IMG/VR virus record: IMGVR_UViG_2778261687_000001
Location: 1-19,860 of that record
DNA: 19,860 bases
Source of the DNA: a virus
Lineage: Duplodnaviria; Heunggongvirae; Uroviricota; Caudoviricetes
Direction: 5' to 3' (one strand)
In this document: positions 1-19,860 of the stretch, one piece after another
Numbering within the stretch: the first letter of the stretch is position 1
How the letters are laid out: every line of letters begins with the position of its first letter
Notes under the pieces: model-generated
Seen by the model: only the letters and a program-made list of their open reading frames with translations
The model's database searches: none
Told to the model about the DNA's origin: nothing
Made by a program: the position numbers and the translations under genes

Positions 1-356
1 ACCATGACAGCGTTCTGTACTTCAGGGGCCAGCTTGTCAAAAGTGACGTTCATCGGATCGGATTCAGTCTCAACCGGTACAAAGGAAGCAGACTCCTCAT
101 CCCAGCGGTTTTCCTGCATATATTCAGCATCCCAGGAATCGAGGGCAGGGCGGGGTATACCGGGTTTATCCTCGCAAACAAGAAATTTATAAGCGCAGTC
201 CTGAGCAGCCGGATAATGTTCCAGGAATTGCCAGTGAAATTTTGCGCGGGCGCGACGTTCATCACCGGCTTCAATGGCAGTGGCTACAGCGACTGCACCT
301 TCTTCCTTTATTGCCTGTTCGTCCGGAATGGCGGCGCAAATAAAGACTTTACTCAT
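1..356 (-). CDS. Hypothetical early-left protein, N-terminal 118 aa only (gene runs past the window start); YdfE-like by position
   Basis: Minus-strand ATG at 356-354 with GAGGT Shine-Dalgarno 8 nt upstream; open frame to window edge, translation MSKVFICAAIPDEQAIKEEG... Identity is by synteny only (downstream of the YdfD-like and DicB-like genes). Confidence 0.5.
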   Translation of the reverse strand, partial: MSKVFICAAIPDEQAIKEEGAVAVATAIEAGDERRARAKFHWQFLEHYPAAQDCAYKFLVCEDKPGIPRPALDSWDAEYMQENRWDEESASFVPVETESDPMNVTFDKLAPEVQNAVM

Positions 357-448
357 TTTGTTTTACCTCATTACAGATTTAAGGGTGAACAAATCCCTGC
401 CATTGCTGGCATATAAAAATGAAACCGGATATTTATTACGGTGCTGGT

Positions 449-640
449 TTAAAGCCCTGCCGGGACTTCGTTATTATCCATGCGAATAACTTTATCGACC
501 GGATAACAGTTACCGGGAATTTTCTGTTCCGCTGCGGCAGCCATGCATTCTTTCATTGAGCCGTATACGCCAGTAACCATGTCAACCGGTTCACCGGAAA
601 CAAGAAAAACCGTCAGAACAAGTGCAAATGTGGTATTCAT
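449..640 (-). CDS. ydfD: YdfD-like small membrane (lysis-associated) protein, 63 aa
   Basis: Internal ATG of track ORF 449..694 with AGGA upstream; translation MNTTFALVLTVFLVSGEPVD... has an N-terminal hydrophobic helix; start overlaps the upstream gene stop (ATGA); matches my recollection of Qin YdfD in length and sequence. Confidence 0.6.
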   Translation of the reverse strand: MNTTFALVLTVFLVSGEPVDMVTGVYGSMKECMAAAAEQKIPGNCYPVDKVIRMDNNEVPAGL

Positions 641-825
641 TGCCAGTATCCTTTTTGAGTCGGACGTAAACGGGCCAGCATAGAAAGAATGCAAATTTGA
701 TTTAATAACTCCCGTTCGTGTTTTCTCTTATTAATGGCATCTTCAGTAAATACAGGGTTACTGATTCTGACACCAATTTCAAAACAACCTTCAGACGTAT
801 TAACGTTTGGTAATAACGTTTCCAT
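637..825 (-). CDS. dicB: Cell-division inhibitor DicB-like protein, 62 aa
   Basis: Track ORF translation METLLPNVNTSEGCFEIGVRISNPVFTEDAINKRKHERELLNQICILSMLARLRPTQKGYWQ closely resembles DicB as I recall it (62 aa); sits just downstream of a DicF-like terminator hairpin, as in the Qin dicB operon. Confidence 0.7.
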   Translation of the reverse strand: METLLPNVNTSEGCFEIGVRISNPVFTEDAINKRKHERELLNQICILSMLARLRPTQKGYWQ

Positions 826-1002
826 TATCGCGTCCTCAACAATGAATTTTGTGATGCGGTGCCTGGTGCCTCCAGGTGACGTTAACCAGTTAACAATTAA
901 CGCCGGATACAGGGAAACCCATAAACACCCGATACGGGGGAACTAATCGCTTTTTAACTGTTCCGCGTGCGCTCAGCCGCATTCACCGCATCACAAAATT
1001 CA

Positions 1003-1066
1003 CTTTAAAAAGGGCGGACATCAGCCAGCAATGAAACTGATGCCGCCAAAGGTACAAATCAACATG
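1003..1066 (-). ncRNA. dicF: DicF-like small RNA (3' intrinsic terminator plus upstream UUUGGCGG...AUCAGUUU core)
   Basis: Minus-strand RNA reads ...UUGAUUUGUACCUUUGGCGGCAUCAGUUUCAUUGCUGGCUGAUGUCCGCCCUUUUU; stem GGCGGCAUCAG/CUGAUG-CCGCC followed by U5. It shares the UUUGGCGG, AUCAGUUU and GCCGCCCUUUUU-type blocks with E. coli DicF as I recall it and sits immediately upstream of dicB. Ends are approximate. Confidence 0.4.
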
Positions 1067-1361
1067 GAGTGTTGTAGCGGGGTTGTCACTCAGGCGTATG
1101 GTCAACCTGACAACCCGGTGCTACCAGTGGGGGTAAGGATAACCCCGCCATACTTACCGCCGCGCCATTTCGCGGAGTGCCACAACCGGAAGCGCACGGT
1201 CGAAGATACCGGCGACACGCAACAGAGGGAGAAATGACTTCGCCGTGCGCTTTCGTGTTGTGTGCCTGCTTTTAACCACGTCAGGCGAGGTGGTTCCTGT
1301 CATTCCCCAACGACAAGAAATCTGTATAATCTGGATATCCCCAACGATCCAAGGAAATCAT

Positions 1362-1508
1362 ATGACAGAGCAAAGAGCACAAGCAGGTGGTGGCAATTCG
1401 ACACATAAAACAGTCTGGGATCACATACCAGAGAAAAACATTCGACCAAAACCATCTCCAGCTCCTTCGGAGGAGAGGGGGAACAGCAACAACCAAACAA
1501 GCAGGTGA
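1362..1508 (+). CDS. Possible small leader ORF (48 aa, hydrophilic, low complexity)
   Basis: ATG at 1362 with AAGGAAA Shine-Dalgarno; extended -10 TGTATAAT at about 1322-1331. Composition (MTEQRAQAGGGNSTHK...) is not convincingly protein-like, so this may be an untranslated leader. Confidence 0.25.
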   Translation: MTEQRAQAGGGNSTHKTVWDHIPEKNIRPKPSPAPSEERGNSNNQTSR

Positions 1509-1514
1509 TGATGT

Positions 1515-1961
1515 ATGGACCGGGATGATATTCTTGACAGAATTTTATATGGCTATTTTCTTGAGCAACTATTTTCTGTAGCGACTGGTCGTCTCGATAA
1601 ACTTCTCTCAGTGGTGAGTATTATCCTCGGTTCATCTGTCATTGGCGGATTCATTCCGGAAATTTCTGGCGTTTTTATTGTTGTGATCGCAACCGTCCAA
1701 ACGATTTATGGATTCGGACAAAAGTCAGGTAACGCCATGAGAAAATCCGCAGAATATTTGCAGCTTTTTGATGATGCAGAAAAATATTCTGATTCTGAAT
1801 TGAAAATGCAGTTAAAAATTCTGGAAAAAACGGATGATCATATTTGGTCATCACTTAAAGATATTGCGATCTTAAAAACACAGATCAAAATAGGCGTTTC
1901 CATCGAACAACAAGAGAAGCTGCCCACAAAATCTAAATTGATGCGATTTCTTTGTGGTTAG
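1515..1961 (+). CDS. Two-TM inner-membrane protein, 148 aa; candidate superinfection-exclusion (SieB-like topology) protein
   Basis: Track ORF with AGGTGA Shine-Dalgarno 7 nt upstream; two adjacent hydrophobic helices (about residues 30-67) then an 80-aa charged C-terminal region; opposite strand to the surrounding early-left genes, at the position where Rac carries sieB. Family assignment is topology and synteny only. Confidence 0.55.
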   Translation: MDRDDILDRILYGYFLEQLFSVATGRLDKLLSVVSIILGSSVIGGFIPEISGVFIVVIATVQTIYGFGQKSGNAMRKSAEYLQLFDDAEKYSDSELKMQLKILEKTDDHIWSSLKDIAILKTQIKIGVSIEQQEKLPTKSKLMRFLCG

Positions 1962-2039
1962 GAATATCCAGAATGTTAAAGAGCATGCCGGAGATTTATC
2001 CGTGTCCGGCGCATGTTCTCCACCTCACCCGTGGAGAAC

Positions 2040-2426
2040 TTAATGATTAATTGATATTTTATAGTTGGCTTCAACTTTCCCATCTGAAGTGGGATGCTTT
2101 AAATCACAGGAATTAATGTTGCACTCAGTAAAATGGTTTTTAAGGGGTTCTATTCGAATCCCTTTCTTTTCCATCAACAAACCAAACCCCTTGTTAATGA
2201 TATCCATTAATTCCAGGAAGTATTTTTCAGAGGAATCATGCTTATCAGAGTGCTGCTTCTCTTCGTACAACCCGATAAAGGCACGGCGCACGTTACCGGA
2301 TATATTATCTATGGTTTCTTTTTCTACGGTACTCAGGTCAAGAGTCGCCAATTGAGAACGAACTATATTCGCTGCCATTTCCTGGAAAGGTGTTGGTAAA
2401 TCTTTAAATTCCATCGTTAATCTCAT
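2040..2426 (-). CDS. Hypothetical protein, 128 aa, AT-rich
   Basis: Track ORF; start ATG overlaps the stop of the upstream YdfA-like gene (TGATG); convergent with 1515..1961 and separated from it by two hairpins (1988-2011 and 2014-2035). No family recognised. Confidence 0.55.
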   Translation of the reverse strand: MRLTMEFKDLPTPFQEMAANIVRSQLATLDLSTVEKETIDNISGNVRRAFIGLYEEKQHSDKHDSSEKYFLELMDIINKGFGLLMEKKGIRIEPLKNHFTECNINSCDLKHPTSDGKVEANYKISINH

Positions 2427-2578
2427 CAGTCAGTATTTCTGGATAACCAGCGACGCGCGCCAGCTTCGGTTTTAAACGTTTTGCTTTTGGTATACGTCAT
2501 CGCGGTGAACGTACCGTCCTGGTTGGGAAACACGCCACATACCAGAGATTCGCTGTTGCCAAGATCGATAGTATCCAT
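2426..2578 (-). CDS. Small YdfA/YdaF-like (DUF1391-type) protein, 50 aa
   Basis: Internal ATG at 2578-2576 with GAGGT 4 nt upstream; translation MDTIDLGNSESLVCGVFPNQDGTFTAMTYTKSKTFKTEAGARRWLSRNTD; first gene of the leftward operon next to an operator-like repeat region. Confidence 0.5.
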   Translation of the reverse strand: MDTIDLGNSESLVCGVFPNQDGTFTAMTYTKSKTFKTEAGARRWLSRNTD

Positions 2579-2754
2579 GTTGACCTCATTTCCCCTTAAC
2601 GCCGGGGTAGCGGAACAAAAACCTGCTGCATAGTTAAAGTTGAACCCTGCCGTCATGTTCTTACGCCTCGGGCTGGCTACTTAACCCCTGACCACTGCCT
2701 GGTAACTCGAAGTATTGCCCGGCGTTCTGTGGGGCGGGGTGGGTTGGTAAAACA

Positions 2755-2805
2755 AAGGATGCACTTTAAAAGTTATTATGTCAACACTTATAAAGTTAGT
2801 TTTAT
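2755..2805 (-). promoter_or_regulatory. OL-like operator/promoter region for the leftward early operon
   Basis: Minus strand reads ...TATAAGTGTTGACATAATAACTTTTAAAGTG...: a consensus TTGACA plus AAGTGTTGA and TTTAAAGTG motifs that recur in the repressor-cro intergenic region. No good -10 was identified, so promoter placement is tentative. Confidence 0.3.
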
Positions 2806-2859
2806 GTGTTCAAAAAACGCCTTGATGTGAAGCGGTTCTGCGAAAAGAAGGGGGAGGTA

Positions 2860-3141
2860 TTATCTGGGAAACTGACGTCTGGCGTGTACGATACTTACAA
2901 TTTCAATACTTGAAGCGGCCACACGGTAAAGAATTATATAATTAGGGTGGGCCACAATCTCACGCAAGCCAGGCACTCTGTCGCTTGGTGGATATAAATA
3001 CGGATGCTCAGATAACGGCAGTACGCAAGCTCTTAAGCGCTTCCACAAACGTTCTGCCGCATCTATGTCGAAACGTGCAATATAACTAGTTATATCATCT
3101 AGGTCGGCATCTGCGCTTTCAAGCCATAACACGGGTAACAT
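2860..3141 (-). CDS. RelE/ParE-family type II toxin, 93 aa
   Basis: Track ORF MLPVLWLESADADLDDITSYIARFDIDAAERLW...HARRQFPR; typical size and residue pattern of the ParE/RelE superfamily; lies 3 bp downstream of a small antitoxin-sized gene. Confidence 0.65.
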   Translation of the reverse strand: MLPVLWLESADADLDDITSYIARFDIDAAERLWKRLRACVLPLSEHPYLYPPSDRVPGLREIVAHPNYIILYRVAASSIEIVSIVHARRQFPR

Positions 3142-3144
3142 TTA

Positions 3145-3333
3145 CTACTTGCTCCGTTCCTTGCGTATTTTAGCAAAGCGTTCTGCCATTCTGCGCTCAA
3201 CCTCGTCATGGGGAATTGCTGGGCGCGGATCTGCAAGGCTTGCTGCTACTTTCGCACGCAGCCATTCGTTGTAACTGTTTTCTTGTTCAATGGTTTCAAA
3301 CTCAGAAACCATTGGTGAAAGGGCTGTATTCAT
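3145..3333 (-). CDS. Putative type II antitoxin, 62 aa
   Basis: Internal ATG at 3333-3331 with GAGGT 7 nt upstream; small charged protein (MNTALSPMVSEFETIEQENSYNEWLRAKVAASLADPRPAIPHDEVERRMAERFAKIRKERSK) immediately upstream of the ParE-like toxin and immediately downstream of the repressor gene. Confidence 0.5.
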   Translation of the reverse strand: MNTALSPMVSEFETIEQENSYNEWLRAKVAASLADPRPAIPHDEVERRMAERFAKIRKERSK

Positions 3334-3362
3334 TACATACCTCATCTTATGGATGATATAGA

Positions 3363-3770
3363 TTATGCTCGATGCCCTTTCTGGGCTGCGAGCCACCGTG
3401 CGACAGTGCGATCCATTGACTCTTTTTTGTCTTTCATATCTTTTAACATTTGTTCTTGATCTTCCTCTGGAAATGCTCCGAAAGTTTGAAGCAATTCTCT
3501 TTGTCTGGGACCTATTTTCATTGTATCAGGCACTACGACTTGCTCTTCTTCGCTTGGCGGTAACATAAACCAATACGGAGGAAAGCCCGTCACTTCGGAA
3601 AGCTTATCGAGATTAGCCGTTGATGGGCTTGTGATGCCATGAACCCACTTTTGGACCGATTGTTGGGCAACACCAATCCTGCGGGCTAGTTCTGCCTGCT
3701 TAAGTCCTGTTTTTTCCAGCACCAATTTTATTCGGTACGTGGTTATTTCAAGGGTAGTCATTCGCTTCAT
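3363..3770 (-). CDS. Prophage repressor, DicA/RacR-like HTH-XRE, 135 aa
   Basis: N-terminal HTH (LKQAELARRIGVAQQSVQKWVHG) and a C-terminal region resembling DicA as I recall it (RELLQTFGAFPEEDQEQ...); divergent from the Cro-like gene across operator repeats. Confidence 0.8.
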   Translation of the reverse strand: MKRMTTLEITTYRIKLVLEKTGLKQAELARRIGVAQQSVQKWVHGITSPSTANLDKLSEVTGFPPYWFMLPPSEEEQVVVPDTMKIGPRQRELLQTFGAFPEEDQEQMLKDMKDKKESMDRTVARWLAAQKGHRA

Positions 3771-3877
3771 GCATTCATTTTACATAAAAAAAGTGTAACT
3801 AGTACAAACAGCTTTAAAGTGTTGATTGTGTAACTTTAAAAGTGTATAAATCATGGCAATTCATTGGAGTTAACGAT
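3771..3877. promoter_or_regulatory. OR-like divergent promoter/operator region between repressor and cro-like gene
   Basis: Rightward promoter TTGATT (3822-3827), 17-bp spacer, TATAAA (3845-3850); repeated GTGTAAC and AAGTGT motifs (3791-3799, 3816-3835, 3839-3850); a TAAAAT -10 on the minus strand about 6 nt before the repressor ATG. Confidence 0.5.
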
Positions 3878-4156
3878 ATGCATGAATGTTTAAAAAATAA
3901 AATTCATCAAAAAGGGTTATCCCAAGCAGGTATTGCTCGTTTGATTGGATTACCGCAGCAGGTTGTGTCCCGATGGGCTAATGGGCATCAGATTCCTGCA
4001 TCAAGGGTTTTGCAACTATGCGAGATTATGGAGTGGACGGTTACCCCCCACGAACTTCGTCCTGACATTTACCCCAACCCAACAGACGGGCTGCCTTGTG
4101 GAAATAAGTGTATGGCGAATGAATCACTGGCGGTGAACAATGAAAATCACCCCTGA
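3878..4156 (+). CDS. Cro/YdaS-like HTH regulator, 92 aa
   Basis: ATG at 3878 with GGAG 8 nt upstream; HTH (LSQAGIARLIGLPQQVVSRWANG) and the TPHELRPDIYP motif typical of YdaS-family Cro-like proteins. Confidence 0.7.
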   Translation: MHECLKNKIHQKGLSQAGIARLIGLPQQVVSRWANGHQIPASRVLQLCEIMEWTVTPHELRPDIYPNPTDGLPCGNKCMANESLAVNNENHP

Positions 4157-4661
4157 ACAGGTTTGTGAGGCTCTGGATGCCTGGGTATGCCGACCAGGAA
4201 TGACACAGGAGCAGGCGACGATATTAATCACGGAAGCATTCTGGGCTCTGAAAGAACGCCCGAACATCGATGTTCAACGCGTCACGTTTGATGATGGCGC
4301 GGTTGATCAACGGGCGCTGGGCGTTAACCGGGTGAAGATTTTCGAACGCTGGAAAACTATCGACACCAGGGATAAGCGTGAAAAATTCACGGCGCTGATT
4401 CCGGCAATTATGGAGGCTATCCGGATCAGTGATTTCAGGTTGTATTGTGAAATTACTGACGGAAAAAGCATTACGTACATGATCGCCGGGTTAAACAAAG
4501 AATATGGCGAAGTGGTGGAGTCCGGGCTGCTTTTTGCGGATCCAGCCATTGTGGAGCGTGAAGCTGACGAGCTAATAGAAAAAGCCATAGCTTTCAAGCG
4601 TGCGTATCGTCAGCAATATCAACAAAAAGCCGGATGGAATTATGAGTCTCCTTTTTGCTGA
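4140..4661 (+). CDS. YdaT-family protein (CII-position regulator/toxin-like), 173 aa
   Basis: Track ORF overlapping the cro-like stop; position and size match ydaT-type genes that follow ydaS in Rac-like prophages. Confidence 0.6.
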   Translation: MKITPEQVCEALDAWVCRPGMTQEQATILITEAFWALKERPNIDVQRVTFDDGAVDQRALGVNRVKIFERWKTIDTRDKREKFTALIPAIMEAIRISDFRLYCEITDGKSITYMIAGLNKEYGEVVESGLLFADPAIVEREADELIEKAIAFKRAYRQQYQQKAGWNYESPFC

Positions 4662-5607
4662 ACGCCCGCTGGTTATAAACACGCAGCTGGCGATGAAAAT
4701 TGGTCTGAACGAAGCCATCGTGTTGCAGCAGCTGCATTACTGGTTGAGAGATACCAGTTCCGGCATGGAATGTGATGGTGTTCGCTGGATTTATAACACA
4801 ACTGAACAATGGCTGGAACAGTTCCCGTTCTGGTCAGAGTCAACGTTAAAACGCGCATTTGCAAGTCTGAAAACGCTGGGGCTTTTGCGTTGCGAAAAGC
4901 TCAATAAATCAAAGCGCGATATGACTAATTTCTACACGATCAATTACGAGAGCAAGCTTTTAGATGATGGCAAATTGAGCGAATCCATCAGGTCAAAATG
5001 CGCCGCTCCATCAGGTCAAAATGACACGATGGAAGAGGCCAAAATGACACACCCCATTGGTTCAAAACGACCCAATGTCATCGGGTCAAAATGGCCCGAT
5101 GATCCTACAGAGATTACTACAGAGATTACTACAGAGAATAAAAACACTTCTTGTCCGGAAGCTTCGCAACCGGACGAGGAGACGGCTGAACAGGATTTTT
5201 TAACCCGACATCCTGACGCGGTTGTGTTCAGTGCGAAAAAACGCCAGTGGGGCAGCCAGGAAGATTTGACGTGTGCGCAGTGGATCTGGGGGCGAATCGT
5301 GAGTCTTTACGAACAGGCTGCCAGCGATGATGGCGAGATCACGCGACCGAAAGAACCCAACTGGACCGCATGGGCCAATGACGTGCGCACAATGCGGATG
5401 CTGGATGGCAGAACTCACAGGCAAATTTGCGAAATGTTCAGTCGGGTACAACGGGATCCATTCTGGGTAAAAAACGTCATGAGCCCGTCAAAGCTTCGCG
5501 AAAAATGGGATGAGCTGGTTATTCGTCTGGGACGTTCGCCTGTACAGCGTTGTGTGAATCACATTTCTGAACCGGACACCGAAATTCCGCCGGGATTCAG
5601 GGGGTAA
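4642..5607 (+). CDS. Replication initiator (lambda O-like replisome organiser), about 321 aa
   Basis: N-terminal winged-helix-like region (ERPLVINTQLAMKIGLNEAIVLQQLHYWL); direct DNA repeats (iterons) inside the coding sequence; followed by the DnaC-like loader. Start may instead be GTG at 4600. Confidence 0.75.
   Translation: MSLLFAERPLVINTQLAMKIGLNEAIVLQQLHYWLRDTSSGMECDGVRWIYNTTEQWLEQFPFWSESTLKRAFASLKTLGLLRCEKLNKSKRDMTNFYTINYESKLLDDGKLSESIRSKCAAPSGQNDTMEEAKMTHPIGSKRPNVIGSKWPDDPTEITTEITTENKNTSCPEASQPDEETAEQDFLTRHPDAVVFSAKKRQWGSQEDLTCAQWIWGRIVSLYEQAASDDGEITRPKEPNWTAWANDVRTMRMLDGRTHRQICEMFSRVQRDPFWVKNVMSPSKLREKWDELVIRLGRSPVQRCVNHISEPDTEIPPGFRG
4986..5136. repeat. Origin-like iteron array (CATCAGGTCAAAATG-type repeats, about 22-bp period) followed by tandem 12-bp ACAGAGATTACT repeats
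   Basis: Exact CATCAGGTCAAAATG at 4986-5000 and 5008-5022, variant CATCGGGTCAAAATG at 5078-5092 and degenerate copies between; ACAGAGATTACT tandem at 5107-5136; all inside the O-like gene, as for lambda ori. Confidence 0.55.
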
Positions 5608-5613
5608 CGGGTT

Positions 5614-6360
5614 ATGAAAAATATTGCTGCAGGTGGTGTTCTTGAACGCATCCGTAAGCTGGCCCCGCAGCATGTAACCGCACCGTACCGGACAGTGGAC
5701 GAGTGGAGAGAGTGGCAGCTTGCAGAAGGGCGAAAGCGTAGTGAGGAAATTAACCGCCAGAATCGCCAGATCCGGGTGGAGAAAATTATGAAGCGTTCCG
5801 GTATCCAACTGTTGCACCAGAAGTGTTCGTTTGCGAATTACCTGGTGAAGAACGATGGCCAACGCCACGCGCTGAGCCAGGCAAAATCCATCGCGGAAGA
5901 AATGATGACCGGATGCACAAATTTCGTGTTCAGCGGTAAGCCGGGTACCGGAAAGAATCATCTGGCAGCAGCCATTGGCAACCATCTTCTGGCGAAAGGT
6001 CGCAGCGTGATTGTGGTGACGGTGGCGGATGTGATGCTGGCGTTACACGGCAACTACGACAACAAAAACTCGGGCGAAAAGTTTTTACAGGGGTTGTGTG
6101 AAGTTGACCTGCTTGTCCTGGATGAAATTGGTATGCAGCGGGATACGCGTAACGAACAGGTCACACTGAACCAGATAGTCGATCGCAGAACGGCCTCGAT
6201 GCACAGCGTCGGGATGCTGACGAACCTGAACCATACGGCAATGAATACGCTGCTTGGTGAGCGCGTGATGGACCGCATGACCATGAACGGTGGTCGCTGG
6301 GTGAATTTTAACTGGGAGAGCTGGCGTTCAAATGTCAGTCATTTAAGGGTTGTGAAGTAA
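5614..6360 (+). CDS. DnaC-like helicase loader (IstB-type AAA+ ATPase; lambda P functional analogue)
   Basis: Walker A GKPGTGKNHLAAAIG and Walker B DLLVLDEIG; immediately follows the initiator gene. Confidence 0.85.
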   Translation: MKNIAAGGVLERIRKLAPQHVTAPYRTVDEWREWQLAEGRKRSEEINRQNRQIRVEKIMKRSGIQLLHQKCSFANYLVKNDGQRHALSQAKSIAEEMMTGCTNFVFSGKPGTGKNHLAAAIGNHLLAKGRSVIVVTVADVMLALHGNYDNKNSGEKFLQGLCEVDLLVLDEIGMQRDTRNEQVTLNQIVDRRTASMHSVGMLTNLNHTAMNTLLGERVMDRMTMNGGRWVNFNWESWRSNVSHLRVVK

Positions 6361-6374
6361 TTTCAGGAGGACTC

Positions 6375-6767
6375 ATGGCAAGCGTTTTTACACCTGAACA
6401 GCGGGAAGAACTGAAGGCACGAATTATCGGGCTGGTACACAGGAACAAACGCATGACGATGTCGCAACTGGAGAGTGCAACGGGGGCTGGCTGGCATACG
6501 GTCAGACGTTGTCTTGTGGATGTGGTTGCTTGTGGTGATTTGTACATATCCGGTAAATACGGTGTTTTTGTATCAGAACAGGCGTATCAGGCGTGGTGTA
6601 AAACTCCGAAGAAAGCTGACCCGGCACTGGTCCGGAAGTTACCTGATGGTGAAATCCGTCGCTACGACAGAGACATGAACATAATTTGCCGGGAATGCCG
6701 TAACAGCGAATCAATGCAACGTGTACTGGCGTTCTATCGGGGTAATTTTCAGGAGGTGATGGAGTGA
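6375..6767 (+). CDS. Hypothetical nin-region protein, 130 aa
   Basis: Track ORF with AGGAGG Shine-Dalgarno; no family recognised. Confidence 0.6.
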   Translation: MASVFTPEQREELKARIIGLVHRNKRMTMSQLESATGAGWHTVRRCLVDVVACGDLYISGKYGVFVSEQAYQAWCKTPKKADPALVRKLPDGEIRRYDRDMNIICRECRNSESMQRVLAFYRGNFQEVME

Positions 6768-7060
6768 GGGTGAGGGTTTATATCGCCGGTCCGATGACCG
6801 GGTATAAAAATTTCAACCGTGAGGCGTTCCACAAGGCAGAAGAGGAACTGAAACGGGAGGGGCATACAGTCTTAAATCCGGCAGTACTTCCGGACGGACT
6901 GACTCAGTTGCAGTACATGGATATCTGCATGGCGATGATACGTTGCGTGGATGCGATTTACATGCTGAATGGCTGGCAGCGGTCGGCGGGTGCCAGGGCA
7001 GAACTGGCACTGGCGGAGAAGCTGGGGCATGCGGTTATTTTACAGAAGGCGATGCAGTGA
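6764..7060 (+). CDS. DUF4406-like (nucleoside 2-deoxyribosyltransferase-like fold) protein, 98 aa
   Basis: Translation VRVYIAGPMTGYKNFNREAF...VLNP...YMLNGWQRSAGARAELALA fits the DUF4406 pattern as I know it; GTG start with GGAGG upstream. Confidence 0.6.
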   Translation: MRVRVYIAGPMTGYKNFNREAFHKAEEELKREGHTVLNPAVLPDGLTQLQYMDICMAMIRCVDAIYMLNGWQRSAGARAELALAEKLGHAVILQKAMQ

Positions 7061-7062
7061 AT

Positions 7063-7239
7063 ATGTTCTGGATAATCAAAATTGAGCTGTTTGTTATTGT
7101 ATTCCTGATCAGTGCATTTCTGGCAGCGGCTTTTATTATCTGGGAAAATCCTTTTCGACATATCAGTCCACTGTTTGCAATCAGGGTGTTAATAGCATCG
7201 GTTGTAGTGGTGTGGTTAATGTGTTTTGCATTATTTTAA
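7063..7239 (+). CDS. Small hydrophobic protein, 58 aa (two predicted TM helices)
   Basis: ATG at 7063 just after the upstream stop; strongly hydrophobic translation MFWIIKIELFVIVFLISAFLAAAFIIW...; weak Shine-Dalgarno. Confidence 0.35.
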   Translation: MFWIIKIELFVIVFLISAFLAAAFIIWENPFRHISPLFAIRVLIASVVVVWLMCFALF

Positions 7240-7252
7240 TGGAGTTAATGTT

Positions 7253-15390: not shown

Positions 15391-15405
15391 ACAGGAGAAA
15401 AACGT

Positions 15406-15795
15406 ATGTCTGAACCCTTGTCCGGTTCCGGCACGGCTGCGGCGCTCGGCGGGGCGACGGTATTCGGGCTGTTTACCGGGACGGATTTCGGGATTGTGTT
15501 TGGCGCGTTTGCCGGGGCGTTGTTTGTGGCCACGATGCCACAGGTGATTTCTGTCTGGCGTGTGGCGGCGCATTTTCTGGTGTCGTTCATTGTTGGCGTG
15601 CTGGGGGCGGATGTCCTTGCGTCCTGGCTGGTCGAAAAATTGAATCTCCACAGCACATCTCTCGACGCGCTTTGTGCGGTACTGGTATCGGTGGTGTCGG
15701 TGAAGATTCTCTCATTCATCCACCAGCAGGATATCGCATCGCTGGTATCCGGGCTGTTCTCCCGTCTGCGGGGTGGAGGCGGTAATGTTAAGTAA
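15406..15795 (+). CDS. Putative holin (three predicted TM helices), 129 aa
   Basis: AGGAG 9 nt upstream; three hydrophobic helices; first gene of a cassette ending in the endolysin. Confidence 0.55.
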   Translation: MSEPLSGSGTAAALGGATVFGLFTGTDFGIVFGAFAGALFVATMPQVISVWRVAAHFLVSFIVGVLGADVLASWLVEKLNLHSTSLDALCAVLVSVVSVKILSFIHQQDIASLVSGLFSRLRGGGGNVK

Positions 15796-16063
15796 CCTTC
15801 CCGGATTACTGAATGTGGTGTTAAGCTCGGTTATCGTGCTGACGCTCTTTTTTTATCGTCGCGGTGAGTCGAGATATAAACCGCTGATGTCGTGGCTGGC
15901 CTGGCTGTTGATGCTGCTTTATGCTTTTGCACCGCTTTGTTATCTGTGTGGTCGCTTCCCACCAGGTAACTGGCTGGTTGTCCTGATTAACTTGGTGTTC
16001 TGCGTGCTGGTGATACGAGCACGCGGGAACGTATCAAAAATCCTTGTATTACGAAGGCGCTGA
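15785..16063 (+). CDS. Second lysis-cassette membrane protein (three predicted TM helices), 92 aa
   Basis: ATG at 15785 with GGAGG 5 nt upstream, overlapping the holin 3' end by 11 nt; stop lies 2 nt before the endolysin start. Confidence 0.5.
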   Translation: MLSNLPGLLNVVLSSVIVLTLFFYRRGESRYKPLMSWLAWLLMLLYAFAPLCYLCGRFPPGNWLVVLINLVFCVLVIRARGNVSKILVLRRR

Positions 16064-16064
16064 T

Positions 16065-16610
16065 ATGAAGTCGAAAGATGAAATTTTTGACGAAATTCTG
16101 GGAAAAGAGGGCGGTTACATCAATCATCCGGATGATAAAGGTGGACCGACCAGATGGGGCATTACTGAAAAAGTTGCCCGCGCACACGGTTATCATGGCG
16201 ATATGCGTGACCTGACGCGTGAGCAGGCGCTGGAAATACTCGAGGCGGACTACTGGTACGGACCACGATTCGACCTGGTTGCGAACCTGTCTCCGGATAT
16301 TGCCTCAGAGTTGTGCGATACGGGCGTGAACATGGGGCCAACTGTGGCGTCCAGAATGCTTCAACGCTGGCTGAACGTTTTCAACCTGCGCGGGAAACTC
16401 TATCCGGATATGGATGCTGATGGACGCATCGGGCCGCGTACTCTTAATGCATTACGGGCATATCTGAAAAATCGCAGCAGGGATGGTGAACTGGTACTGG
16501 TGAAAGCCCTGAACTGTACGCAGGGCGAGCGTTATCTGGAGCTGGCAGAGAAACGCGAGGCCAATGAGTCGTTTGTCTATGGCTGGATGAAAGAGCGCGT
16601 GGCTGTGTGA
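16065..16610 (+). CDS. Endolysin, GH108-type N-terminal domain with C-terminal peptidoglycan-binding domain, 181 aa
   Basis: Hallmark EGGYINHPDDKGGPTRWGIT motif of the GH108 family; follows two small membrane proteins. Confidence 0.8.
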   Translation: MKSKDEIFDEILGKEGGYINHPDDKGGPTRWGITEKVARAHGYHGDMRDLTREQALEILEADYWYGPRFDLVANLSPDIASELCDTGVNMGPTVASRMLQRWLNVFNLRGKLYPDMDADGRIGPRTLNALRAYLKNRSRDGELVLVKALNCTQGERYLELAEKREANESFVYGWMKERVAV

Positions 16611-16699
16611 TAGCATTTAAAAATGATCATTATCAATGAGTTAAGTGTATGTTGCGTTTAATTTCTCCTGGGCGTACGCAACCAAAAGGAGAAATACGT

Positions 16700-16906
16700 A
16701 TGAAGTACTATGTTCACACTCTTACAGATAATCAGAACGATCATGAGGTTCATACAGAAACATGTTTTCGACTTCCTGATGCAAACAATCGTAAAGAGCT
16801 TGGAGAGTTTAGCTCATGTGAGCCGGCAGTGAAGGCCGCAAAAAATCTGGGTTACACGAGGGTGAATGGATGTTACTGGTGCTGCAGAGATTGCCATACA
16901 TCCTGA
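16700..16906 (+). CDS. Small Cys-rich protein, 68 aa
   Basis: AAGGAG 8 nt upstream; C-terminal GCYWCCRDCH cluster; followed by a strong terminator. Confidence 0.5.
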   Translation: MKYYVHTLTDNQNDHEVHTETCFRLPDANNRKELGEFSSCEPAVKAAKNLGYTRVNGCYWCCRDCHTS

Positions 16907-16930
16907 CATAAGGTGTGAATAATTCTGACA

Positions 16931-16958
16931 AAGGTCGCTTCGGCGGCCTTTTTTATTA
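16931..16958 (+). terminator. Intrinsic terminator (UUCG tetraloop hairpin plus T-run)
   Basis: AAGGTCGC-TTCG-GCGGCCTT then TTTTTATT. Confidence 0.6.
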
Positions 16959-16985
16959 CTCAAAAACGAAAGAACGGAGGTACGT

Positions 16986-17267
16986 ATGTACGCACTCAAG
17001 AAAATCACGGTAACAGAAGACGGTCGTCATGTTGAGGAAGTGCATGTCCTGGGGGATATGTACCGCCTGGAGTTCTATCCGCGTAACACTCATCTTGCAG
17101 CGAAGATTGAGTATTGCCGGGACGGGAATATTCCGTGCATTCCTGTAGAAAAAGAGGATGAAGCCTACATCATCACACTGAACGGTGACACGGCGCGTTG
17201 TATCTGTCGTGGCGACAGTGAAGCCCGGAATGAAATAGCAAGATGTCGCGCCCATACAGATAAATAA
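16986..17267 (+). CDS. Hypothetical protein, 93 aa
   Basis: GGAGGT Shine-Dalgarno; soluble, Cys-containing; followed by a terminator-like hairpin. Confidence 0.55.
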   Translation: MYALKKITVTEDGRHVEEVHVLGDMYRLEFYPRNTHLAAKIEYCRDGNIPCIPVEKEDEAYIITLNGDTARCICRGDSEARNEIARCRAHTDK

Positions 17268-17273
17268 AAAGCA

Positions 17274-17312
17274 AAAACCCCGGCTGCGGGAACAGTTCGG
17301 GGTTTTCTGTTT
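17274..17312 (+). terminator. Terminator-like hairpin with T-rich tail
   Basis: AAAACCCCG ... CGGGGTTTT followed by CTGTTTC. Confidence 0.45.
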
Positions 17313-17338
17313 CTGACCTTGAGTAAGCAAGGGAGAAC

Positions 17339-17521
17339 ATGGAGAAGTATAAACGAATTCTGTTTAGGTTGACTATGAAAAACGGCCTTGAATTGAAAGC
17401 GCCTGTAACTGATGACATCAGCAGAGCGGTGGCTTTTGCCATTAAGTGGGTGGCTGTCGGTATCGCTGTGTCTCCGATTCTGTATGGGATGGCAAAATTG
17501 ATCATTGCTGTGAAATCGTAA
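17339..17521 (+). CDS. Small protein with C-terminal TM helix, 60 aa
   Basis: GGGAG upstream; hydrophobic C-terminal segment AFAIKWVAVGIAVSPILYGMAKLIIAV. Confidence 0.4.
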   Translation: MEKYKRILFRLTMKNGLELKAPVTDDISRAVAFAIKWVAVGIAVSPILYGMAKLIIAVKS

Positions 17522-17538
17522 GTGGGGCAGGGGTAAAT

Positions 17539-17673
17539 ATGTCAGATAGCATTATAAAACTGGCGCGAATTCTCTGTGTGGCTGTTGGCCTTTCATTTTC
17601 AGCAATGTTGGTTGCCATTTTCATTTCCACCGCCTGGCGAGTATTGAGCTTATCCGGATTGATTGGTGGATAG
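17539..17673 (+). CDS. Small TM peptide, 44 aa
   Basis: ATG at 17539, 17 nt after the previous stop; single hydrophobic helix. Confidence 0.3.
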   Translation: MSDSIIKLARILCVAVGLSFSAMLVAIFISTAWRVLSLSGLIGG

Positions 17674-17677
17674 TGAG

Positions 17678-17860
17678 ATGAAGCGAAAACACTGGACACA
17701 CAGAATGCCGCGAACGGCGGCGAAATGGGCACTGGTAGCGATACTGGTGCCTTTTTTCCTGGTGGGATGCGTCAGCCTGGATAAGGCGCGCCAGCTTTTC
17801 GATACGGCTTCTCAGGTCTGCGAAATTGTCGACGGTGTTCGACAGTGTCTGCAGAGCTGA
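17678..17860 (+). CDS. Small predicted lipoprotein, 60 aa (lipobox LVGC)
   Basis: Basic N-region, hydrophobic core WALVAILVPFFLV, lipobox LVG-C; short Cys-containing mature part. Confidence 0.45.
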   Translation: MKRKHWTHRMPRTAAKWALVAILVPFFLVGCVSLDKARQLFDTASQVCEIVDGVRQCLQS

Positions 17861-18033
17861 TCGCCCGTAAGAGCAGAATATTTCGCTGAAAAATGAAGGA
17901 TGCGCCAGCGTCCAGAAAGCATGAAATTCTGCTGTGTGTGCCAATTTGTCTTATACATTCTGAATCTTGCCGCATCAGGATGAACTTTGAACAACAGCCC
18001 GGGCGGCAAGGGGCATTTTTATCCGGAGGGGAT

Positions 18034-18258
18034 ATGAAGAGATTACTGGTAACCGTAAAGCCCTTTAACGGAACGATTCCATTCAGGGTTTTGCAGCGTG
18101 GACGTGTTCTGGTTAAGGATATCTTCAGTGGTAAATGCACGGAATGTTATTCCCGGACATATGAAGTGGATGCCACGGATGAAGAAATTTCTGTTGAATG
18201 TGATCTTAACGCGAATATGGCGGAGATTGTAACAGCCACGTTGTTACCTGTTTCATGA
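18034..18258 (+). CDS. Hypothetical small protein, 74 aa
   Basis: Internal ATG with GGAGGGG upstream inside track ORF 17893..18258. Confidence 0.4.
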   Translation: MKRLLVTVKPFNGTIPFRVLQRGRVLVKDIFSGKCTECYSRTYEVDATDEEISVECDLNANMAEIVTATLLPVS

Positions 18259-18298
18259 ATGACATAGAATGTCTCCGGGTACCCAAAAGGAGAAAACT

Positions 18299-18514
18299 AT
18301 GTTTGTAGAAAATAACCTGAAGGCCGATCCTGATAATCAGGGATGGGTTCTGGGTTGGGCTGTAGTACGTGACAAACCCTGGCATCTGGTCGGTATTTAT
18401 GCAACGGAGGATGGCGCAAAGTCTAAACGCTCTGAATTGAATGGGGAGTATGAAGTTCGTTATGGTTCCCATCGTTTAGGTAGTGATGATTTTATGTCTG
18501 TCGGACTTAGCTAA
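18299..18514 (+). CDS. Hypothetical small protein, 71 aa
   Basis: AAAAGGAG Shine-Dalgarno; followed by a strong terminator. Confidence 0.5.
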   Translation: MFVENNLKADPDNQGWVLGWAVVRDKPWHLVGIYATEDGAKSKRSELNGEYEVRYGSHRLGSDDFMSVGLS

Positions 18515-18526
18515 CTGGCTGTGATG

Positions 18527-18555
18527 CCTGTTTGTAGCCCCGCAAATGCGGGGCT
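18527..18555 (+). terminator. Intrinsic terminator
   Basis: AGCCCCGC-aaat-GCGGGGCT then TTTTTTAT. Confidence 0.65.
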
Positions 18556-18570
18556 TTTTTATATCTGGAG

Positions 18571-18969
18571 ATGATGATGGAAAAAACAGAAAACAAACCT
18601 GTTGCAATTGGTGCTGATGCTGCTCCGTTTAAGTTTGAGTTGTCTCAACTGGTGGAGATGCGCATCAGTGATGAATGGGGTGAGGTTAAAGCCCGCGCGC
18701 AGTATGCGGATGGCGAAAACCAGTACTTGATCCACTACAAGGCTGCAGATGGTCGCGCCACGACGCAGTGGTTTGGTGAGTCAATGCTGGAAGCAACAGA
18801 AGATGATCGCCATCCGGGCTGTCCGGTATTTGCCGGTATGAAATTACCGGAAGGGGCAGTTGAACTGCAGCCGGGTGAGGTGTTCGTAATGTCAGAAGTC
18901 ATTGATGGTAAACCGCAGTATTCGCGTATTGAAATGAATAGTAAGAGTGCTCGCCTGATTCGTGAGTAA
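18571..18969 (+). CDS. Hypothetical protein, 132 aa
   Basis: GGAG upstream of a triple ATG; soluble acidic protein; a 13-bp stem-loop follows the stop. Confidence 0.6.
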   Translation: MMMEKTENKPVAIGADAAPFKFELSQLVEMRISDEWGEVKARAQYADGENQYLIHYKAADGRATTQWFGESMLEATEDDRHPGCPVFAGMKLPEGAVELQPGEVFVMSEVIDGKPQYSRIEMNSKSARLIRE

Positions 18970-19016
18970 CAGGCATTACAGCAGCCCTTCACTCTAAGGG
19001 GCTGCTGTAATGTGAG

Positions 19017-19054
19017 AAATAAAAAACCGGTCCAGCTACACAGAACCGGCCGGC
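19017..19054 (-). terminator. Minus-strand intrinsic terminator
   Basis: Minus strand reads CCGGTTCTGTGTAGCTGGACCGG then TTTTTTATTTC. Confidence 0.45.
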
Positions 19055-19140
19055 GAAGACCGCCAATACCACCCATGCATTGATGCAACATACTAATGAC
19101 AATAGCCGCTATTGATGTAAATGCAATGTTATGCATCGAC

Positions 19141-19184
19141 GAAAATAAAAAACCGGCAGGGGAAATCCATTGAAGACTTGCCGG
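19141..19184 (-). terminator. Minus-strand intrinsic terminator (second copy of the AAATAAAAAACCGG-flanked hairpin)
   Basis: Minus strand reads CCGGCAAG...CTGCCGG then TTTTTTATTTTC. Confidence 0.45.
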
Positions 19185-19329
19185 TGGCAAAAGTTGCCAA
19201 TGCTTTTATAACCGTAGTCACAGAGTTACGAAGTGCAACACCGAATGCTGCTGGTATATGGATGAATGGCGTTTCAATGATTTTCATCAATTTATTCATC
19301 AGCAATGGTGATAATCACTCTCATTTGTG

Positions 19330-19545
19330 CGGGTCCTTCCGGTGGGGGGGCCTGCCACGGGGCGGCAGCGTCGCGGAAAACGGCTAGTTTTTGCATTTTC
19401 ATGGTGGCGGCAGCATGTGATGTAATTTATTGATAATTAAAAGCTATTTCCATTTTCACCTGTACAATATTTTTTTCTCCCTGTCATTAGACCAGTTTGC
19501 AATTCATTGAAATATATAAATAAACCTGATTTTCACCTGCCAGAT
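19330..19545. other. Lambda-like cos region: cosN-like core (about 19356-19376) and two ATTTTCACCTG direct repeats (19452-19462, 19529-19539) as candidate terS-binding sites
   Basis: GGGTCCTTCCGGTG ... ACGGGGCGGCAGCGTCGCGG resembles the lambda right end and cohesive-end region (ACGGGTCCTTTCCGGTG ... GGGCGGCGACCTCGCGGG) as I recall it; it lies about 200 bp upstream of the terS start, as cosN does relative to Nu1. Confidence 0.5.
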
Positions 19546-19555
19546 GGAGTTGCTT

Positions 19556-19860
19556 ATGTCAAATGTGAGCGGGATCGGTGATGCTTATTACTGGAGTGTT
19601 TTTAAAATCGCCGAGGCCTTTGGGCTTCACCGGGACACAGTAAAAAAACGGCTCCTCGCGGCCAACACTCCTGTGGCTGCGACTGTCAGGGGGAACCCCG
19701 TTTACGCCCTGCAGCATGTCGGGCCTGCCCTGTTTAGTGTGAAGCATGAGGCAGCAGACTCTGTTCATGATCCATCCCGTATGGGTAAGCGGCTCACCAG
19801 AACCGTATTGATATTTACTGAGAGCTCAGATCAACTTTCCAGGGCAACAGATCGCGTACC
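19556..19860 (+). CDS. Terminase small subunit (Nu1-like), N-terminal 101 aa; gene runs past the window end
   Basis: GGAG 7 nt upstream; open to the window edge; N-terminal HTH-like segment (YYWSVFKIAEAFGLHRDTVKKRL) and GNPVYAL motif parallel lambda Nu1; sits just downstream of the cos-like sequence. Confidence 0.5.
   Translation, partial: MSNVSGIGDAYYWSVFKIAEAFGLHRDTVKKRLLAANTPVAATVRGNPVYALQHVGPALFSVKHEAADSVHDPSRMGKRLTRTVLIFTESSDQLSRATDRV

Follow-up and report, generated by a model that had tools for sequence, protein, structure and literature searches.

The window analyzed here, a stretch of 19,860 nucleotides (nt) that makes up positions 1 to 19,860 of IMG/VR record IMGVR_UViG_2778261687_000001, is the early-to-late region of an Escherichia coli lambdoid prophage. 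Its lysis genes lie on the + strand. Gene A (15406-15795) encodes a holin of 129 amino acids (aa), gene B (15785-16063) a 92-aa membrane protein, and gene C (16065-16610) a soluble 181-aa GH108 N-acetylmuramidase, the endolysin; gene H (17678-17860), further downstream, encodes a 60-aa prolipoprotein that is a candidate outer-membrane component of the cassette. It is well supported that A, B, and C form a Q-dependent late lysis module, and the cassette is of a type already known, L28-L30 of phage phiP27, and widespread. An original prediction, made from the letters of the window, had placed a lysis cassette at 15406-16610, where all three genes are indeed found; ending it at 16610 was too early and left out H.

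The holin pair

The product of A matches Phage_holin_8 (PF16931) at 79.2 bits (cut-off 26.4) over model positions 1-121 of 121, and PHROG 198, 'holin', with E = 1e-41. For B, the best start is the ATG at 15785; its product matches Phage_holin_3_7 (PF05449) at 74.2 bits (cut-off 25.4) and PHROG 217, also annotated 'holin'. Hydropathy of A gives three clear spans at residues ~25-44, 50-76, and 86-106, together with a Gly/Ala-rich hydrophobic N-terminal stretch at residues 11-24 that is a possible fourth. In B there are three clean hydrophobic spans, and loop 1 and the C-terminus are both basic, features that fit a predicted N-out/C-in topology. The original prediction of two consecutive, overlapping membrane-protein genes was borne out, and the search with holin hidden Markov models that it proposed placed both products in holin families (Pfam and PHROGs), far above the curated cut-offs; its description of both proteins as three-helix holds for B and is likely, not certain, for A.

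The two genes overlap by 11 nt, which couples the translation of B to that of A, and A sits 270 nt upstream of the endolysin gene. A GGAGG Shine-Dalgarno sequence at 15775-15779 lies 5 nt before the ATG of B. The codons of the conserved C-terminal Gly run of A (GGTGGAGGCGGT, at 15771-15787) double as this Shine-Dalgarno sequence, a role that may explain the conservation of the Gly tail. We considered a dual-start motif in B (GTG at 15773, ATG at 15785) and judged it unlikely, as no ribosome-binding site precedes the GTG.

A PF16931 and PF05449 pair, in the same order and overlapping, is also found in lineages of ~30% identity (L070, L170) and in Castellaniella (L089), and the A and B pair is kept across four divergent lineages, a betaproteobacterium included. 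Because the pair recurs at such distances, we regard A and B as an old two-gene unit. At two loci (L172, L247) a single holin of the lambda S family (PF05106) stands in place of the whole pair; replacement by one lambda-S-type gene is compatible with a holin-plus-regulator unit as well as with a two-subunit holin. The lambda S gene encodes both a holin and an antiholin. Two membrane-protein functions likewise stand at the head of the lysis cassette in P2 (Y and LysA) and P1 (LydA and LydB), where holin and antiholin have a gene each, and in lambda (S105 and S107), where both come from a dual start, but searches of Pfam, PHROGs, and NCBIfam gave no homology of A or B to the antiholins of these phages. 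The only matches of A and B in these three databases were to holin families, with no match to any antiholin family. The original prediction had counted a match of B to a known antiholin family as evidence against itself; B matched a holin family (PF05449, PHROG 217) and no antiholin family.

Experimental evidence comes from a close relative of A. When a gene for a 130-aa 'putative holin' downstream of stx2e was replaced, enrofloxacin-induced extracellular Stx2e was abolished (PLoS Pathogens 2025; PMC12571312). The plasmid-borne gene restored Stx2e release and also conferred release on non-responsive strains (PMC12571312). The cloning primer used in that study, ATGTCTGAACCCTTGTCCGG, is identical to the first 20 nt of A in the window. 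Judging from the primer arms, the replacement would also take out the start codon of B, and the study therefore does not separate A from B. It is well supported that A-type proteins promote the release of periplasmic or cellular content upon SOS induction; that A forms lethal membrane lesions which release the endolysin is putative, by analogy with the Stx2e release by the 130-aa homologue.

The roles of the two proteins could also be divided more sharply. The layout of B is that of a textbook class I holin, with three transmembrane domains (TMDs), N-out/C-in orientation, and a strongly basic C-terminus, so B might be the true hole-forming holin and A its antiholin or regulator; conversely, A might be the holin and B the antiholin. 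The single lambda-S-family gene at L172 and L247 is consistent with a holin-plus-regulator unit of this kind. On the other side, A alone on a plasmid restored SOS-induced Stx2e release in deletion mutants (PMC12571312), although the deletion, by its primer sequences, would also remove the start codon of B; neither protein matches a described antiholin family, and the upstream GTG of B lacks the ribosome-binding site that a dual start would call for. We regard a holin-antiholin division in either direction as rather doubtful. For B itself, co-holin and antiholin are about equally likely.

The endolysin

For C, the best start is the ATG at 16065, not the TTG at 16044. The protein matches Glyco_hydro_108 (PF05838) at 88.9 bits and PG_binding_3 (PF09374) at 93.5 bits, likewise far above the curated cut-offs, and the EGGY motif is present within 'GKEGGY' at residues 13-18. 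Hydropathy revealed no hydrophobic segment in C, whose N-terminus reads MKSKDEIFDEILGKEGGY; C is therefore neither a signal-anchor-release (SAR) nor a signal-peptide endolysin, in agreement with the original assignment of a GH108-type, non-SAR enzyme.

The closest characterized relative is Sen1395 (PDB 6V3Z), to which C is ~84% identical over 179 residues (counted from the alignment; E = 3e-105). Peptidoglycan hydrolysis has been demonstrated with purified Sen1395, the phage-type counterpart and homologue of TtsA, the muramidase of the typhoid-toxin system (PMC6996933). C-type enzymes are thus, on good evidence, muramidases without an export signal, and as such a signal is absent, C depends on a holin. 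Sen1395, TtsA (6V40), and N4 gp61 share with C the two-domain GH108 and PG_binding_3 architecture and the EGGY motif. TtsA differs from C in being specialized for typhoid-toxin export (PMC6996933), and the N4 endolysin is called a SAR endolysin in the title of a preprint (bioRxiv 10.1101/2025.11.12.688109), whereas C has no N-terminal hydrophobic segment.

A lipoprotein gene downstream of the endolysin

We scanned positions 16000-19860 of the + strand from every possible start codon for two kinds of product: those in which a charged n-region and then a hydrophobic h-region lead up to a lipobox, and those in the range of 70-220 aa that have their TMD at the N-terminus. The textbook embedded Rz/Rz1 pair of a related locus (L148) was recovered as a control. 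Within the scanned interval there was no i-spanin-like open reading frame (ORF; N-terminal TMD, >=70 aa) and exactly one ORF with a lipobox, which is H. No ORF embedded in or overlapping A, B, or C, or around H, has a lipobox or an N-terminal TMD. Compact cassettes of related prophages contain no i-spanin either, and a scan of the whole phiP27 genome gave no credible one.

The original prediction had held that no Rz/Rz1-like pair follows the endolysin and had taken an embedded spanin pair as the observation that would speak against it; the rule-based scan found neither. Its wider statement that the cassette has no recognizable spanins is correct for an Rz/Rz1 pair and for a unimolecular spanin, but is overstated, as the H lipoprotein holds the spanin slot and a published census counts the phiP27 homologue of H among the o-spanins.

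H consists of a signal part, MKRKHWTHRMPRTAAKWALVAILVPFFLVG, and a mature part, CVSLDKARQLFDTASQVCEIVDGVRQCLQS, with cleavage predicted before Cys31 of the lipobox L-V-G-C, which is invariant across the H family. The residue at +2 is Val and not Asp, so an outer-membrane location is predicted for H. Mature H is helical, has 30 residues and no proline, and carries a net charge of -1 (3 basic, 4 acidic residues); there is no C-terminal TMD and no hydrophobic segment after residue 37. Cysteines C31, C48, and C57 are invariant. The n-region (17678-17728), of ~17 residues with 6 Lys/Arg and 2 His, is nearly invariant (R3 K4 H5 W6 T7 H8 R9 P11) and overlaps no other gene. Across 75 unique alleles, the ratio of nonsynonymous to synonymous polymorphism (pN/pS) is 0.23 for the whole of H and 0.19 for the mature part, indicating that H is under purifying selection.

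No homology of H to a known family was found in Pfam (E <= 0.1), NCBIfam, or the annotated PHROGs; its own group, PHROG 7528, is labeled 'unknown function'. A profile search of 1.84 billion representatives yielded only 23 clusters, and the dozen or so that we inspected are mostly small lipoproteins of ~55-70 aa. The full-length ones among those inspected share a pattern of lipobox-Cys, ~16 residues, Cys, 8-9 residues, and Cys. Among 5426 complete E. coli genomes, 354 carry H, always as 'hypothetical' or unannotated. The literature on orphan o-spanins, spanin-less systems, and these Pfam families yielded no experiments on B or H.

Linkage of H to the cassette and exchange with Rz/Rz1

We examined sets of loci anchored on H, on the endolysin, and on B; sets anchored on H are biased towards H by construction, whereas the B-anchored set is not. 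In the 80 H-anchored IMG/VR loci, A, B, and an endolysin (GH108 or M15) lie upstream of H wherever the upstream sequence suffices, and the commonest layout places A at -1052, B at -670, and an M15 endolysin at -392 relative to the start of H. H is present in 137 of 150 de-duplicated endolysin-anchored loci, and in 69 of these 137 it starts <=14 nt from the endolysin stop; in L070 its ATG overlaps the GH108 stop codon. A tblastn search of H against phages returned only phiP27, vB_Apl-pPE4, and phiSTEC1575-Stx2k, plus a divergent form in GER2.

Divergent members of the H family (44-65% identity) also stand directly after the endolysin. H follows a divergent PF16931 and PF05449 pair in L170 and L176 and the single lambda-S-family holin (PF05106) in L172 and L247, and the gene 3' of H varies between loci. 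Lying behind GH108 or M15 endolysins and behind two holin types, H is independent of any one partner.

The 79 B-anchored loci comprise 65 with H, five with Rz/Rz1 instead (L127, L129, L130, L132, L148), five with neither, and four that are too short; H and Rz/Rz1 occur together in none of the 79. The exchange can be delimited by comparing L012, which carries H, with L148, which carries Rz/Rz1. They align at 88% over a stretch that starts with A, takes in the M15 endolysin, and reaches ~9 nt into H or Rz. Similarity then ceases for 329 bp in L012 and 464 bp in L148, and resumes in the next gene. The shared flanks point to a clean allelic replacement of H by Rz/Rz1 or the reverse. On this comparative evidence, H is the positional alternative of Rz/Rz1 and appears to belong to the lysis cassette.

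GER2 was considered as a counter-example combining H with Rz and was rejected, its H-like sequence being a pseudogene with three in-frame stops (L006 3989-4171). The same decayed remnant, with broken frames, lies downstream of Rz in E. coli FDAARGOS_403 (L248 2501-2686). In both cases, the remnant is situated between the Rz and terminase genes of S-R-Rz Stx-type phages. These remnants suggest past exchange between H-type and Rz-type cassettes.

A profile search of genome contigs with the B alignment gave two loci, one of them in a metagenome-assembled genome of Castellaniella defragrans (L089 4100-5779). It holds the PF16931 and PF05449 pair, an endolysin without a Pfam match, and an embedded Rz/Rz1-like pair. 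There, a 170-190-aa protein with an N-terminal TMD occupies the position of H and contains an embedded proline-rich lipoprotein ORF with the lipobox LSAC; the pair is Rz/Rz1-like by features, not by homology. This cassette implies that the holin pair is older than the divergence of H-type from Rz-type cassettes.

Genes between the endolysin and H, and the question of a partner

In the window, four genes on the + strand lie between C and H. D (16700-16906) encodes a small Cys-rich protein of 68 aa (PHROG 4298), E (16986-17267) a soluble protein of 93 aa (PHROG 33497), F (17339-17521) a 60-aa protein with a basic N-terminus and a C-terminal transmembrane segment (PHROG 1115), and G (17539-17673) a 44-aa protein with a single transmembrane segment (PHROG 4906); all four groups are of unknown function. 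D has seven cysteines, including a CYWCCRDC cluster, and a strong ribosome-binding site before it, and a 55%-identical, paralogue-like relative lies downstream of H in many related loci. The terminator scan placed a terminator-like hairpin after D and another after E (about 16930-16951 and 17270-17310). The layout with D, E, F, and G inserted, in which the gap from the endolysin to H is 1067 nt, occurs in only three loci and is a rare derived form.

F and G (17339-17673) form a module that is also present at L003 3579-3871 and in L129, L130, and L132, always in the interval between endolysin and spanin genes. In PhiR12_3 and related Stx-type phages, the homologues of F and G are placed between lysozyme R and Rz, and G stands directly upstream of a genuine Rz in PhiR12_3, L129, L130, and L132. 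Neither gene is found in the 69 compact cassettes. F and G thus behave as a mobile module targeting the endolysin-spanin interval, and they could be lysis modulators. As an i-spanin for H, we rejected both: G has only ~12 residues past its transmembrane segment, that of F is C-terminal, and both are missing from the compact cassettes and occur upstream of genuine Rz as well.

H had been noticed before. PhiP27 has an entry in the supplement of Kongari et al. 2018 as 'sep', a separated two-component spanin, with a 64-aa i-spanin at 20348-20542 and a 51-aa o-spanin at 20706-20861 (PMC6139136). That o-spanin is H read from an internal Met, giving 51 aa with the same 30-residue mature part, 83% helical, and the census entry thus amounts to an earlier recognition of H as an o-spanin. 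The phiP27 copy of H lies at L002 5612-5800 (NC_003356 20673-20861). It is missing from the RefSeq annotation, which has the overlapping L32 (20630-20785), read in a different frame, in its place.

Taken at face value, the census would make H the o-spanin of a separated two-component spanin whose partner is a tiny transmembrane protein, either the phiP27 64-aa ORF or, in the window, G, which has an N-terminal transmembrane segment and ends 5 nt before H. However, the 64-aa ORF starts at TTG, lies antisense to a 90-aa ORF whose protein sequence is conserved, and occurs in 3 of the 80 H-anchored loci, these being phiP27 or identical copies. We regard it as a false call, which leaves H without a partner. 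G, for its part, is absent from the 69 compact cassettes and also precedes Rz genes that have their own TMD, and by the geometry of spanins (PMC6139136) its ~12 residues past the membrane together with the 30 of mature H are too short for the periplasm. A two-component spanin built on H is therefore highly improbable.

The function of H

We consider it somewhat better than an even chance, with a probability of about 0.55, that H is a lysis factor at the outer membrane, as its position and comparative distribution suggest. A further step is that H acts alone, with no partner in the inner membrane, and is functionally equivalent to Rz/Rz1, which it would have replaced in phiP27-type and related Enterobacterales cassettes; the H family would then be a new class of outer-membrane lysis factors that have one component and do not span the periplasm. 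This we propose tentatively, at a little below even odds.

The principal alternative is that the cassette has no outer-membrane component and that H is an unrelated late or moron lipoprotein, comparable to T5 Llp or Cor, which act in receptor masking and superinfection exclusion, with the outer membrane breaking passively or through another factor. Morons are known to gather downstream of lambdoid lysis genes, a bor-like gene in L128 being an example; searches of Pfam, PHROGs, and NCBIfam linked H to no known lysis protein; some related prophages have neither H nor Rz; and in the window four genes and a terminator-like hairpin part H from the endolysin. Against this stand the spacing of <=14 nt that half of the loci show between the endolysin stop and H, the overlap in L070, the exchange of H for Rz/Rz1 between the same flanks, the absence of any intact H beside Rz, and the retention of its position behind different holins and different endolysins. 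In addition, a translationally coupled gene expressed only late would be a poor fit for a moron expressed in the lysogen. We judge the moron explanation unlikely.

Several observations nevertheless weigh against a role of H in lysis. Its assignment draws on gene position and comparative genomics, and the comparative sets are dominated by closely related, partly redundant Enterobacterales prophages. H matches no known lysis or membrane-disrupting family, the net charge of its mature part is negative, and the AlphaFold2 model, a single long helix, is of low confidence (predicted local distance difference test score 67, predicted template modelling score 0.29) and indicates helical propensity only. 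Small phage outer-membrane lipoproteins are known in other roles, namely receptor masking and serum resistance. Both H and Rz are missing from a few cassettes (L090, L128, L142, and those of the LT-II prophages), which implies that the outer-membrane step may be dispensable and that H could be accessory. The five B-anchored cassettes of this kind show that the step can be lost, and at least some of them are degraded or toxin-carrying. Finally, the 1.07 kb and the intrinsic-terminator-like hairpin between the endolysin and H in the window mean that co-expression of H would depend on Q antitermination.

Comparison with known outer-membrane lysis proteins

H occupies the same cassette position as lambda Rz/Rz1, is interchangeable with it between the same flanks, and like Rz1 has conserved periplasmic cysteines (PMC6139136). 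Rz1, however, has 40 residues of which 10 are prolines (PMC6139136), whereas mature H is shorter, helical, proline-free, and without sequence similarity to Rz1; Rz/Rz1 is a two-component system, and H has no i-spanin partner. In terms of a two-component spanin, H thus has the features of an o-spanin, there is no i-spanin, and, from length only, H would not span the periplasm. Since its 30 mature residues cannot bridge the periplasm, H is not a spanin in the mechanistic sense. The unimolecular spanin T1 gp11 is also a single gene with an N-terminal lipoprotein signal in a lysis cassette; unlike it, H lacks a C-terminal TMD, and its length falls far short of the distance to the inner membrane.

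Among tailed phages, a single outer-membrane disruptor that is not a spanin has been described, the disruptin phiKT gp28 (bioRxiv 10.1101/515445). It resembles H in being a small single protein from a spanin-less E. coli phage cassette that is proposed to attack the outer membrane directly, but it is cationic, non-lipidated, and antimicrobial-like, whereas H has a mature net charge of -1, a lipobox, and cysteines, and so does not fit the description of a disruptin. Colicin lysis or bacteriocin release proteins are small lipoproteins with mature parts of ~30 residues, like that of H, which permeabilize the envelope. H has no match to the Pfam model Lysis_col at E <= 0.1, and its genetic context differs. 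An action like that of colicin lysis proteins, through outer-membrane phospholipase A (OMPLA), would be an alternative of the same kind as the one we favor, by an analogy confined to size and lipid anchor.

Context of the cassette in the window and in related prophages

Upstream of the cassette, the window contains an HTH (helix-turn-helix) repressor-like gene, a DnaC/IstB-like loader, DUF968, and RusA genes, followed by the late antiterminator Q (11431-12102, + strand; PF06323 Phage_antiter_Q, 302.7 bits), which drives the late operon with the lysis genes in it, a DNA methylase (13592-14638), and tRNA-Gly(UCC) (14856-14928). Three terminator-like hairpins in the leader upstream of A were found by the terminator scan at 15214-15380 (+ strand), between tRNA-Gly and A, the slot that holds stx2e in phiP27; there is no toxin gene in the window. 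In the region as a whole, the same scan gave 22 terminator-like sites against 8 expected. The interval 15200-18000 is 100% identical in four complete E. coli chromosomes (R1, RM11911, RM13745, and RM13752), where RefSeq annotates the same genes and a small terminase subunit just downstream, and parts of it are found in 926 of the 5426 complete E. coli genomes.

The closest named system is phiP27, whose L28 and L29 are the same genes as A and B (88% and 78% protein identity to those of the window) and whose H is 95% identical. Gene order, the A/B overlap, and the position downstream of Q, methylase, and tRNAs also agree. The two differ in that phiP27 has an M15 peptidase endolysin (L30) with stx2e upstream, and the window has a GH108 endolysin, no toxin gene, and D-G inserted. 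The A and B pair also heads the lysis genes of phiSTEC1575-Stx2k, of the 'Actinobacillus' phage vB_Apl-pPE4, and of the LT-II prophage SerU-LTIIb. In SerU-LTIIb, holin1, holin2, and endolysin are annotated, and the endolysin is the same GH108 enzyme. The LT-II prophages (SerU-LTIIb, which is L004, with L143 and L150) have A, B, and the GH108 gene followed by toxin genes, with neither H nor Rz. AB5 toxin genes repeatedly accompany the A-B-GH108 cassette type, and TtsA, the typhoid-toxin export muramidase, belongs to the same endolysin family.

Proposed mechanism and implications

We propose that A and B are made together by way of their 11-nt overlap and gather in the inner membrane, where at least A would form holes, with B as a second hole subunit or a timing regulator. 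C would reach the murein through these holes and cleave its glycan strands. H, with a lipid on Cys31 and its place in the outer membrane, would act at the last step of lysis and weaken or permeabilize that membrane from the inner leaflet, perhaps in the form of an oligomer disulfide-linked through C48 and C57. The outer membrane would then fail once the murein has been removed.

The cassette bears on toxin release, since it adjoins stx2e in phiP27 and LT-II genes in SerU-LTIIb, and its first holin controls antibiotic-induced Stx2e release in porcine Shiga toxin-producing E. coli (PMC12571312). In practical terms, H is present in 354 of the 5426 E. coli genomes and yet goes unannotated or as 'hypothetical', with the wrong frame called in the phiP27 record. 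In the 2018 census, ~13% of the phages of Gram-negative hosts were without an identifiable spanin (PMC6139136). If our reading of H is true, it would represent a third route to outer-membrane disruption, beside the spanins and the cationic disruptin; and if a lone 30-residue outer-membrane lipoprotein does replace Rz/Rz1, the outer-membrane step of lysis would be possible without membrane fusion across the periplasm.

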